From Candidatus Helarchaeota ASGARD archaeon Hel_GB_B (GTDB lineage Archaea; Asgardarchaeota; Lokiarchaeia; Helarchaeales; HEL-GB-B), in contig SUPR01000138.1 of the NCBI GenBank assembly GCA_005191425.1, positions 1-7,087 on the forward strand: 7,087 nt of DNA, given 5' to 3'. Numbering within the stretch: position 1 is the first letter of the stretch; every line of letters starts with the position of its first letter. The translations under genes and the position numbers were made by a program. The notes below the pieces were generated by a model. The model ran no database searches, had not been told where the DNA came from, and worked only from the letters and a program-made list of their open reading frames with translations. Below, piece after piece: positions 4,808 through 7,087 of the stretch.

Positions 4808-5695
4808 TTGAATTTTCGAGTTAGACTGATTGAAAAAATTAGACAGAAAAAGAGTCTTGTCTGTTTCGGGATTGACCCTGACGTTGAGTCGGAATTTTTC
4901 CCGAGATATGTATTAGAATATAACAAACCTAAATTAGAGTTTGCAAAAATGATTTTAGATGAAGTAGAAGACAAGATACCAATTATAAAAATAAATACGC
5001 GATATTTTTTTATAGATGAGATGGACCAGTTAAAATCTATAGTCCAGTATGCACATACAAAAGATTTAGAAGTAATAGGTGATTGTAAAGAGAATGATAT
5101 TGGACATTCAATGTCAATGGCATACAAGAAGCATTTTTTAGGATTTAAATATGATGCAATTACGGTAAATGGATATTTTGGAAGTGAAGGGGTTATAGGA
5201 ACTACTGAACGACCTATATTTAAAAAGTGGTTCGACCAAGGAAAAGGATTATTTGTATTGATAAAAACCTCTAATTTAAGTGGAGCAGAAGTTCAAGATT
5301 TAAAAATAGTAGAAACTTCAAATGGACAAAATAATAAAAATGAAATTCCATTATATAATTATTTAGCCCAATTAGTTGAAAAATGGAGTTCAAAATATGA
5401 TTTTTGTATTGGAGGGGTAGTTGGAGCAACGTATCCCGATCAGTTGAAAATTATCAGAAATTTGATTTCGGGAGTTCTATTATTACCAGGTTATGGAACT
5501 CAAGGAGGGAGCGCGGAGAACATTAAATACTGCGTAAAAGGAGAAAAATTTTCAATTATTAATTCAAGTCGAAGTATAATGTATGCATACGCTAAAAAAT
5601 ATAGAGGTCAATTTAATCCAAATGATTTTCCCAAAGCATCAAGAAAGTACATCGAGGAAATGATTCAAAACATCAATAAATGCGTAAAATTCTGA
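4808..5695 (+). CDS. pyrF: Orotidine-5'-phosphate decarboxylase, long (subfamily 2-like) form
   Basis: CFGIDP; IIKIN (catalytic Lys); GDCKENDIG (DxKxxDIG); GLFVLIKTSN; GGVVGAT; LLPGYGTQGG; INSSRSIMYA. SD-like GGTGA (4794-4798) 9 nt before the TTG. Confidence 0.95.
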   Translation: MNFRVRLIEKIRQKKSLVCFGIDPDVESEFFPRYVLEYNKPKLEFAKMILDEVEDKIPIIKINTRYFFIDEMDQLKSIVQYAHTKDLEVIGDCKENDIGHSMSMAYKKHFLGFKYDAITVNGYFGSEGVIGTTERPIFKKWFDQGKGLFVLIKTSNLSGAEVQDLKIVETSNGQNNKNEIPLYNYLAQLVEKWSSKYDFCIGGVVGATYPDQLKIIRNLISGVLLLPGYGTQGGSAENIKYCVKGEKFSIINSSRSIMYAYAKKYRGQFNPNDFPKASRKYIEEMIQNINKCVKF

Positions 5696-5982
5696 CAAAA
5701 TTAGATAATAAAAAATATAATAGAAATAAAACGGATTATATTTGTTTCCAATTCTTTAATATTCGTTTTTGATAAATAAGACTATACAATTTAGCTCAAT
5801 TAATGAAGATATTTATCTTAAATCATAATAACAATGAGTAGTGATGTTTTTATAATTACATATTGATTATAATATTTAAAAAACCTAAAAAAGATTTAGA
5901 AATTGAATTTATTACCCTAAAATTAAAGGAATAATTTAAGTTGAAAATGAAGGAATAATTTTTTATACTAAAAAGATTATAA

Positions 5983-6065
5983 AAAAAATTAGATTAAATT
6001 ATCAAAAAAATTTGATTAAATCTTTATGAAATTTAAATAAAATATTCTAAAAAATTTGATTAAAT
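5983..6065 (+). repeat. 17-bp direct repeats AAAAAATTWGATTAAAT in 22-bp phase upstream of nrdD
   Basis: Copies at 5983-5999 (1 mismatch), 6005-6021 and 6049-6065 (identical to each other); offsets 22 and 44 bp. Confidence 0.8.
6026..6039 (+). promoter_or_regulatory. Candidate BRE/TATA box of nrdD
   Basis: ATGAAA-TTTAAATA (5/6 BRE match plus consensus TTTAWATA). An alternative TTATAAAA lies at 6086-6093. AT-rich context limits specificity. Confidence 0.4.
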
Positions 6066-6128
6066 TAGGACTTAAATTTAATTTGTTATAAAAACTAAAA
6101 AAAATAAAAAGGATTGAGGGTTTTTATC

Positions 6129-7087
6129 TTGCTTGAAGAAGAAACTATTAATAACGGGCGATTTGTACAAGAGTTACTACCACCTGTTAGGACTACAAAA
6201 GGAGATATAGAGCCTTTTGATAGTAAAAAGATACTTGAAAGTTTAATGAGAGAAACTGGAATTAATAGAGATGCAGCAACTAAAGTTACTAAACAAGTCT
6301 TAAAAAGAATTGTAAGTTCGGATATTGAATGGCTCTCTGGTCCCGAAATTAGGGAGTTGTGTTGCTCAGTTCTCGCAGAAAACGGTTTGTTAGCTGCTAG
6401 AAAAAGATATACTCGGTTAGGAATGCCTTTAATGGACTACGAAGAGTTATTAAAAAATGGTATTAAGGAAAATGCAAACCAATATAACAATCCCGAGTCT
6501 ATTCATTCTTGGGTCGCAGACCGGATAGCTTCTGAATATGCTTTACTCAGACTTTTACCGGAACAACATTCTAATGCGCACCTCCGTGGTGATATTCACA
6601 TTCATATGCTCAGATATTTTGATTTGAGGCCTTTTTGTCAGGAATGGGACCTCCGGGTCATACTTAAACACGGGCTACCACCAACGGGCTGGAGCCATTC
6701 CGCCGTAAGTTCCCCCGCAAAACACGCCATGGTCGCAGTTTTACACGCTGCAAAATGGCTTGGTATTGTCCAGGGCGAATTTTCGGGTGGACAGGGTTAT
6801 GACAATTTTACGGTCTTTTTAGCCCCGTATTTAAGGGGAAAATCACATGAAGAACTTGTCCAATTAGCACAATGCTTTCTGTATGAATCAAACCAAATTT
6901 ACGCAGCAAGAGGTGCACAGGTACCATTTACGTCCATATCATGCATTCCGACCGTTCCCAAGAGTCTTATGGACGTCCCTGCCGTCTCATTTGGGGGTAA
7001 AATAGACGGTGTTTATGGGGACTATGTTGACGAGTGCAATAGATTTTTCAGGGCAATCAACGAGGTCTACATGGCGGGAGATGGGAC
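6129..7087 (+). CDS. nrdD: Anaerobic (class III) ribonucleoside-triphosphate reductase with N-terminal ATP-cone, 3'-truncated
   Basis: Translated by hand; open from TTG 6129 (GAGGG at 6116-6120; in-frame TAA at 6105-6107) to the window end. ATP-cone-like PVRTTKGDIEPFDSKKILESL...SGPEIRELCCSVL; ENANQYNNPES; AHLRGDIHIH; RPFCQEWDLR; QGEFSGGQGYDNFTVFLAPY; ARGAQVPFTS. Confidence 0.95.
   Translation, partial: MLEEETINNGRFVQELLPPVRTTKGDIEPFDSKKILESLMRETGINRDAATKVTKQVLKRIVSSDIEWLSGPEIRELCCSVLAENGLLAARKRYTRLGMPLMDYEELLKNGIKENANQYNNPESIHSWVADRIASEYALLRLLPEQHSNAHLRGDIHIHMLRYFDLRPFCQEWDLRVILKHGLPPTGWSHSAVSSPAKHAMVAVLHAAKWLGIVQGEFSGGQGYDNFTVFLAPYLRGKSHEELVQLAQCFLYESNQIYAARGAQVPFTSISCIPTVPKSLMDVPAVSFGGKIDGVYGDYVDECNRFFRAINEVYMAGDG

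Follow-up and report, generated by a model that had tools for sequence, protein, structure and literature searches.

NrdR is the repressor of ribonucleotide reductase (RNR) genes in bacteria and is rare in archaea. Lrp/AsnC-family factors typically wrap the DNA and recognize a series of boxes that are in helical phase, each an AT-centred palindrome; their boxes have a 13–15-bp form, and Ss-LrpB occupies three regularly spaced palindromic boxes. On the transcriptional control of dNTP synthesis in archaea, the literature that we searched describes no dedicated nrdD regulator, in keeping with the first-pass annotation of this DNA, which knew of none. NrdR recognizes partially palindromic boxes of 16 bp, which occur in multiple copies across the promoter and the start site and whose function is dependent on helical phase (PMC9110341, PMC13584703, PMC12051234). 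Paired NrdR boxes are separated by a linker of 15–16 bp, which places them ~31–32 bp apart from centre to centre (PMC13584703).

The window analysed here, a stretch of 7087 bp that makes up the whole of contig C46, belongs to an Asgard archaeal assembly of 3.54 Mb (G000; 28% G+C, 93.7% complete, 4.9% contamination) and carries a 22-bp-period array of AT-rich palindromes ahead of nrdD, the gene for class III RNR. As a cis element of this archaeal nrdD promoter the array is genuine, and it is conserved in part. We read it as a promoter-embedded operator for a dimeric or oligomeric regulator and give this reading a probability of about one half; the best candidate for the regulator, at a lower probability, is a 709-residue protein encoded on contig C141 of the same genome. 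Like NrdR boxes, the array sites are dedicated to an RNR promoter, partially palindromic, 16 bp long, present in multiple copies and placed across the promoter and the predicted start site. Unlike the NrdR pair with its longer linker, neighbouring boxes in the array lie 6 bp apart and 22 bp from centre to centre, the units number three to four rather than two, and the promoter is of the archaeal TATA type. The motif is also unlike the NrdR box, as the first-pass annotation had stated: against the NrdR-box consensus (ACACWATATATWGTGT-like), no match with three or fewer mismatches occurs anywhere in the window. Its further statement that NrdR is essentially bacterial agrees with the lack of any TIGR00244 match in the 93.7% complete assembly. 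Together, the absence of a box match, the 22-bp spacing and the lack of a detectable nrdR gene rule out an NrdR operator. In its predicted operator role the array resembles an NrdR-type multi-box operator in its working, while lying outside the NrdR family.

Architecture and rarity of the array

The array is built on a 17-mer, AAAAAATTWGATTAAAT, whose copies start at 5983, 6005 and 6049 on inspection of the sequence, in steps of 22 and 44 bp (Table 1). Copy 1 of the direct repeat reads AAAAAATTAGATTAAAT and copies 2 and 3 both read AAAAAATTTGATTAAAT, and a further core at 6074–6083, AAATTTAATT, lies in register with them. Each of the three copies overlaps a palindrome; these palindromes, starting at 5979, 6001 and 6045, leave gaps of 6 and 28 bp between them, and the third (O3) matches the 15-mer TCWAAAAWWTTWGAT. 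A-runs recur in the array region every 22–45 bp. The array extends from 146 to 64 bp ahead of the nrdD start codon and brackets the best candidate TATA box. When checked against the sequence, the coordinates given in the first-pass annotation for the 17-mer copies, the palindromes, the TATA box and the degenerate unit were all correct, and the slot missing from the lattice indeed holds TTTAAATA.

Table 1. Coordinates of the nrdD promoter array, its neighbouring features and the candidate regulator gene (positions are those of the window unless a contig is named)
Feature	Position	Strand	Remarks
OMP-decarboxylase-family gene	4808–5695		followed by a 433-bp spacer (15% G+C), then nrdD
Alternative TATA-like octamer TTTTTATA	5960–5967	+	upstream of the array; candidate from sequence
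22-bp-period tandem array, 4.2 units	5976–6067	.	Tandem Repeats Finder: 68% matches, score 86
O1, degenerate 16-bp palindrome ATAAAA-AAAA-TTAGAT	5979–5994	.	4/6 arm pairs; overlaps direct-repeat copy 1 (5983–5999)
O2, perfect 6-4-6 palindrome ATCAAAAAAATTTGAT (ATCAAA-AAAA-TTTGAT)	6001–6016	.	overlaps copy 2 (6005–6021)
Best candidate TATA box TTTAAATA	6032–6039	+	otherwise empty slot of the 22-bp lattice; putative promoter use
O3, 16-bp palindrome TTCTAA-AAAA-TTTGAT	6045–6060	.	4/6 arm pairs; overlaps copy 3 (6049–6065)
Fifth lattice unit, degenerate	6071–6087	+	weak alone; 10/17 over the whole unit, core AAATTTAATT 9/10 with the G lost
nrdD 5' part, class III ribonucleotide reductase (ATP-cone + NRDD)	6129–7087	+	Pfam PF03477, PF13597; cut by the contig end
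709-residue protein, candidate regulator (locus L009)	C141:18373–20502	minus	Pfam: DUF7347/ArsR-type winged HTH, ATP-cone, NRDD

Among the TATA-like octamers in the upstream regions of this genome, TTTAAATA ranks first (405 occurrences vs 180 for TTTATATA). In sequence it fits an archaeal TATA box, a T/A-only octamer that would follow a purine-rich BRE and lie ~25 nt before the start; the repeated units carry a G. If TTTAAATA is the TATA box, the usual archaeal TATA-to-start distance puts the start site near 6062, where it would be covered by O3. Were the alternative octamer TTTTTATA used, the whole array would instead sit at and downstream of the start site. The predicted N-terminus aligns with that of the same-genus orthologue when translation begins at TTG 6129 (preceded by GGATTGAGGG), which suggests this codon rather than 6114 as the nrdD start.

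The rest of the contig includes a minus-strand MFS transporter gene, a methyltransferase gene and, at 2–1345, a frame of 447 residues that is open at the contig start and matches no Pfam family; a stretch of this frame is 86–87% identical to a translated stretch of contig C133. An Rfam tRNA match at 2175–2296, which is stretched over 122 nt and was missed by ARAGORN, fits an intron-bearing archaeal tRNA.

AT-rich palindromes and a 10–11-bp A-tract periodicity arise easily in DNA of 15% G+C, which counts against the operator reading. A triplet was defined as any 17-mer with two further copies, each with at most one mismatch, within 110 bp; when the 433-bp spacer was shuffled 5000 times with its dinucleotides preserved, three of the shuffles contained one. 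Measured against the shuffled spacer, the array thus exceeds chance and is non-random. By the same criterion the whole 3.5-Mb genome has 22 comparable arrays, of which several are GC-rich or belong to contig-end repeats, with just a few within its 604 kb of intergenic DNA, so that the concern voiced with the first-pass annotation, that similar arrays might be common, is not borne out. The exact 17-mer has four copies in 3.54 Mb, three of them in the array. The 15-mer TCWAAAAWWTTWGAT has 13 genomic copies, of which four are intergenic and two of those four fall in the array.

Searches of the genome with the 17-mer (up to four mismatches, together with pair spacing) returned no coherent gene set and no enrichment for nucleotide metabolism, and the same was true of searches with TTWGATTAAAT, with the 15-mer palindrome and with the A-run plus TTWGAT half-site. 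Since the genome has no other paired or strong site, the array stands without a regulon or an independent target, and the failure of the 17-mer, core, palindrome and half-site searches to give a second convincing target rules out a dispersed repeat or regulon motif. Across the seven genomes of the order, matches to GATARAACTATCAAAA away from nrdD are mostly internal to reading frames, and no nucleotide-metabolism gene has one ahead of it. The PF02867 reductase gene on contig C107 begins 17 nt after another gene and has no array. The array is also not a structured RNA leader or riboswitch: no Rfam match was found there, and the fold is not significant (z-score −0.84).

Conservation upstream of orthologous nrdD genes

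The nrdD loci of 40 related genomes and 80 metagenome contigs were retrieved, and the upstream regions of the sister family (f2) were taken from G002, G006 and the metagenome loci L045 and L047–L049. When each of the five f2 regions is matched without gaps to the 433-bp spacer, its best 32-mer lies at 5980–6020, with 25–28 of 32 positions identical, a level that none of 200 shuffles reached. This block is the sole part of the spacer that is significantly conserved in the f2 nrdD upstream regions, the flanks having diverged. All f2 regions present the same succession of an A/T run, (C/A)TC-N10-GAT, ARAAC and TATC-A7-TT, followed by a consensus TATA box. Within it TTAGATAAA and TTATATAAA are spaced 22 bp apart, equal to the array step, and the G and C positions are kept, while the first part of the block forms a palindrome of 14–16 bp (TCTAAA-AA-TTTAGA in L047 and L048). 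The ungapped match pairs O1 with the f2 palindrome (TC-N10-GAT) and the left half of O2, TATCAAAAAAATT, with its BRE-proximal counterpart, which is identical in f2 and there has a TATA box after it. A MAFFT alignment offers the alternative pairing of O2 with the f2 palindrome and of TTTAAATA with the f2 TATA box. Under either alignment both lineages have a palindrome that precedes a TATA box by 21–22 bp. The 15-mer TCWAAAAWWTTWGAT, looked for among 183 fetched loci, occurs only in the window and in f2 nrdD upstream regions.

The same-genus relative and the two genomes of a further group (f3) have no significant match to the block when 32-mers are scored against shuffles, and the same-genus relative keeps ATC halves only, its GAT halves having been lost. 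The earlier proposal that the motif would be conserved upstream of orthologous nrdD therefore holds in part: f2 retains the core with its 22-bp step, and the same-genus and f3 regions do not match it significantly. In half-site and chain tests that were framed after inspection of the data, chains of three ATC or GAT at 21–23 bp are found in the same-genus locus L042 (4/2000 shuffles), in f3 locus L016 (5/2000) and in f2 loci L044 (14/2000) and L045 (34/2000). Phasing is kept more widely than sequence among the relatives.

Replication slippage or tandem duplication in an AT-rich spacer could have produced the array as a neutral by-product with no function of its own. Such an origin would be consistent with the 15% G+C of the spacer, with the loss of the GAT halves in the same-genus relative, and with a 48-nt repeat of 73% identity (5970–6017 vs 6036–6083) that takes in the core of the fifth lattice unit and forms a 66-bp duplication signature. 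However, the block is conserved across families where its flanks are not, and this cross-family conservation, which the shuffles did not reproduce, makes a neutral origin very unlikely. The scarcity of such arrays in the intergenic DNA of the genome also argues against it, as does the unchanged state of the array in metagenome contigs from three DNA runs, although the latter represent near-identical strains and add little weight.

The f2 regions have features of their own. Approximately 10–45 nt after the nrdD TATA box, loci L045, L047, L048 and L049 carry a conserved leader element, GTAAT-N5-(G/T)TTACC followed by G(A/G)AAGGA(A/G)A. The window does not have this element, which forms an imperfect inverted repeat close to where transcription is expected to begin; it could serve as a second operator or as a feature of the leader. 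In L047 and L048 a perfect inverted repeat, TTGACAT-CAAA-ATGTCAA, precedes the conserved block by ~75 nt. It falls in the long spacer that separates nrdD from a divergent gene encoding 226 residues. The product of this divergent neighbour matches no Pfam family and so is not an obvious regulator.

Operator and core-promoter readings of the repeated unit

In the operator form that we propose, imperfect palindromes of 16 bp, each reading (A)TC-N10-GA(T) around an A-run/T-run interior, would follow one another on a 22-bp lattice corresponding to two helical turns. Two of them precede the TATA box TTTAAATA, and a third would cover the predicted nrdD start site. This presumes recognition of the palindrome and not of the direct repeat. 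Each TC-N10-GA palindrome would be taken by one dimer of a DNA-binding protein, half-sites about one helical turn apart being usual for winged-HTH dimers. The 22- and 44-bp steps would put all sites on one helix face, and contacts between dimers could then lead to cooperative occupancy, with an oligomer bridging O1 and O2 with O3. The bridged array may hinder TBP/TFB or RNA polymerase, so that nrdD transcription would track the signal sensed. Protein binding and repression as its outcome are what we infer for the array; repression is a guess from the position of O3, and a site upstream of the BRE is equally compatible with activation. The locus presents a compact target of ~90 bp in an Asgard archaeon, comprising three strong sites round one TATA box, with a candidate protein in the same genome.

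The strongest and a serious rival to the operator reading is that the units are duplicated core-promoter modules, each consisting of an A-run BRE and a TATA-like TTWGATTAAAT, with phased A-tracts and no dedicated regulator. The modules would act as several weak TBP/TFB entry points or as intrinsically bent upstream DNA; in a variant, an extended BRE would be read by a TFB paralogue. The unit does resemble an archaeal BRE/TATA element in having an A-run followed by a T/A-rich octamer, and where copy 2 would be, relatives have a consensus BRE/TATA. Both f2 and the same-genus relative have TATCAAAAAAA(A)TT continuing directly into a consensus TATA box, and in f2 the place of copy 2 is taken by A7 plus a consensus TATA module. 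In addition, TTWGATTAAAT is found 42 times in intergenic DNA vs 18 times for the reversed control. The fourth exact copy of the 17-mer (C56:16145–16161) is positioned 29 nt ahead of the ATG of an unrelated, gamma-glutamyl-cyclotransferase-like (GGACT-family) gene, where the promoter of a leaderless transcript is expected, and because of this position the unit may act as a core-promoter module. At its beginning, 16 kb from this copy, the same contig carries an nrdD 3' end. Consistent with the variant, a TFB paralogue drives cell-cycle promoters in Sulfolobus, where RNR transcripts cycle (preprint 10.64898/2026.09.06.749720).

On the other hand, the array units differ from BRE/TATA elements in their conserved G, with a C on the other arm, and in their repetition at 22 bp. 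The conserved upstream unit of f2, TC-N10-GAT-ARAAC, keeps these G and C positions and is not itself a TATA box, and in the window a separate consensus TATA box is located between the copies. Furthermore, GATTAAAT shows neither a strand bias nor a positional peak upstream of genes, its profile being flat where it was compared with TATA octamers on crude longest-ORF gene calls. Taken with the points in its favour, we consider the promoter-module explanation rather unlikely; if the units were merely promoter modules, the finding would be an ordinary one.

Candidate binding proteins and the second nrdD

If the array is an operator, the protein encoded on C141 is our tentative choice of binder. 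Alignment with four real NrdD proteins reveals that it is without the thiyl-cysteine loop (SQCCR region) and that it stops before the Zn ribbon and the RVTGY glycyl-radical motif. It therefore cannot be a reductase; its other domains, a winged HTH and an ATP-cone, are listed in Table 1. ATP-cones in this genome are found in the two nrdD genes and in the C141 protein only. An HTH-bearing relative of the protein is present in 38 of 41 genomes of the class searched, this genome included, and our literature search found no paper on a family that combines a winged HTH, an ATP-cone and a dead NrdD. In a protein of this kind DNA binding could be tied to an oligomeric state set by ATP/dATP, as it is in bacterial NrdR, and if it binds the array the ATP-cone would once again be the sensor. 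Carried to its full extent, the proposal is that the array is the operator of the dead-NrdD protein, whose dimers would sit on ATC-N10-GAT, assemble through their ATP-cones across sites two and four helical turns apart, and shut nrdD off at high dATP; we regard this as possible, though doubtful. If true, it would represent a ribonucleotide reductase turned transcription factor and an archaeal, independently evolved functional analogue of NrdR.

Members of the same family in a sister order (f4) have genes that share a cis element with nrdD (nrdD loci L017–L041 and regulator-gene loci L152–L176, for f4 and f5 together). In f4 a CCGACAAAA box lies 68–146 bp before nrdD in 23 of 24 loci, the remaining locus having CCGACGAAA. 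The box is sometimes present twice at nrdD, 10 or 31 bp apart. At the regulator gene it spans codons 2–4 on the same strand in 19 of 20 loci, and the C before it is kept regardless of the encoded residue. In f5 and in one f4 genus the box precedes the regulator gene and is read on the opposite strand. Each genome has just 21–29 copies of the 10-mer CCGACAAAA. Because the box is present at both genes, the f4 nrdD and regulator gene have a common cis element, which has the look of an operator or leader element through which nrdD is connected with the dead-RNR protein. It would provide a second and cleaner cis element for control of nrdD by the dead-RNR family, and, if the C141 protein does act on the array, the box of the sister order would belong to the same circuit with a changed recognition helix.

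The arrangement in the sister order differs from what is present here. In the order of the window neither nrdD nor the regulator gene has the CCGACAAAA box, and the predicted recognition helix reads RFGYHLR in f1–f3 vs NFSFHLK in f4, so that a different operator is expected in the lineage of the window. Since no motif is common to the nrdD and regulator upstream regions in f1–f3, the link between the C141 protein and the array is one that we infer, and as the C141 gene is on another contig it has no positional link to the array.

That nothing within the lineage of the window ties the C141 protein to the array leaves room for a different class of binder, in which the palindromes would still be operators but would be occupied by a chromatin protein or an oligomeric archaeal regulator of general function, e.g. 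an Lrp/AsnC-family factor. The short palindrome arms with a G or C, the A/T-only centre and the regular spacing are reminiscent of Lrp/AsnC multi-box operators, whose evenly spaced AT-centred palindromes would likewise be expected to bind a cooperative oligomer, and the genome encodes seven proteins with an AsnC-type ligand domain. However, Lrp-type factors usually have many targets and a global regulator of this kind should have many sites, whereas the 15-mer is nearly confined to nrdD promoters. The consensus also differs, as does the 16-bp 6-4-6 geometry when compared with the shorter boxes of Lrp-type factors. We consider an Lrp/AsnC-type binder unlikely, and the C141 protein is retained as the preferred candidate.

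The second nrdD is located on contig C14 and encodes a protein 85% identical to that of C46. The C46 and C14 genes are 5' parts that are both cut by contig ends at the same residue, and two separate nrdD 3' ends are found elsewhere in the assembly (C56:4–129 and C13:9819–9944). On account of the two 5' parts and the two 3' ends the genome probably holds two nrdD paralogues, the middle parts of which are unassembled, the alternative being a co-binned relative. The upstream region of the C14 gene differs from that of C46, a point against the operator reading, and has a direct repeat of its own, in which TTTTAATTTCATT occurs twice, ~27 bp apart.
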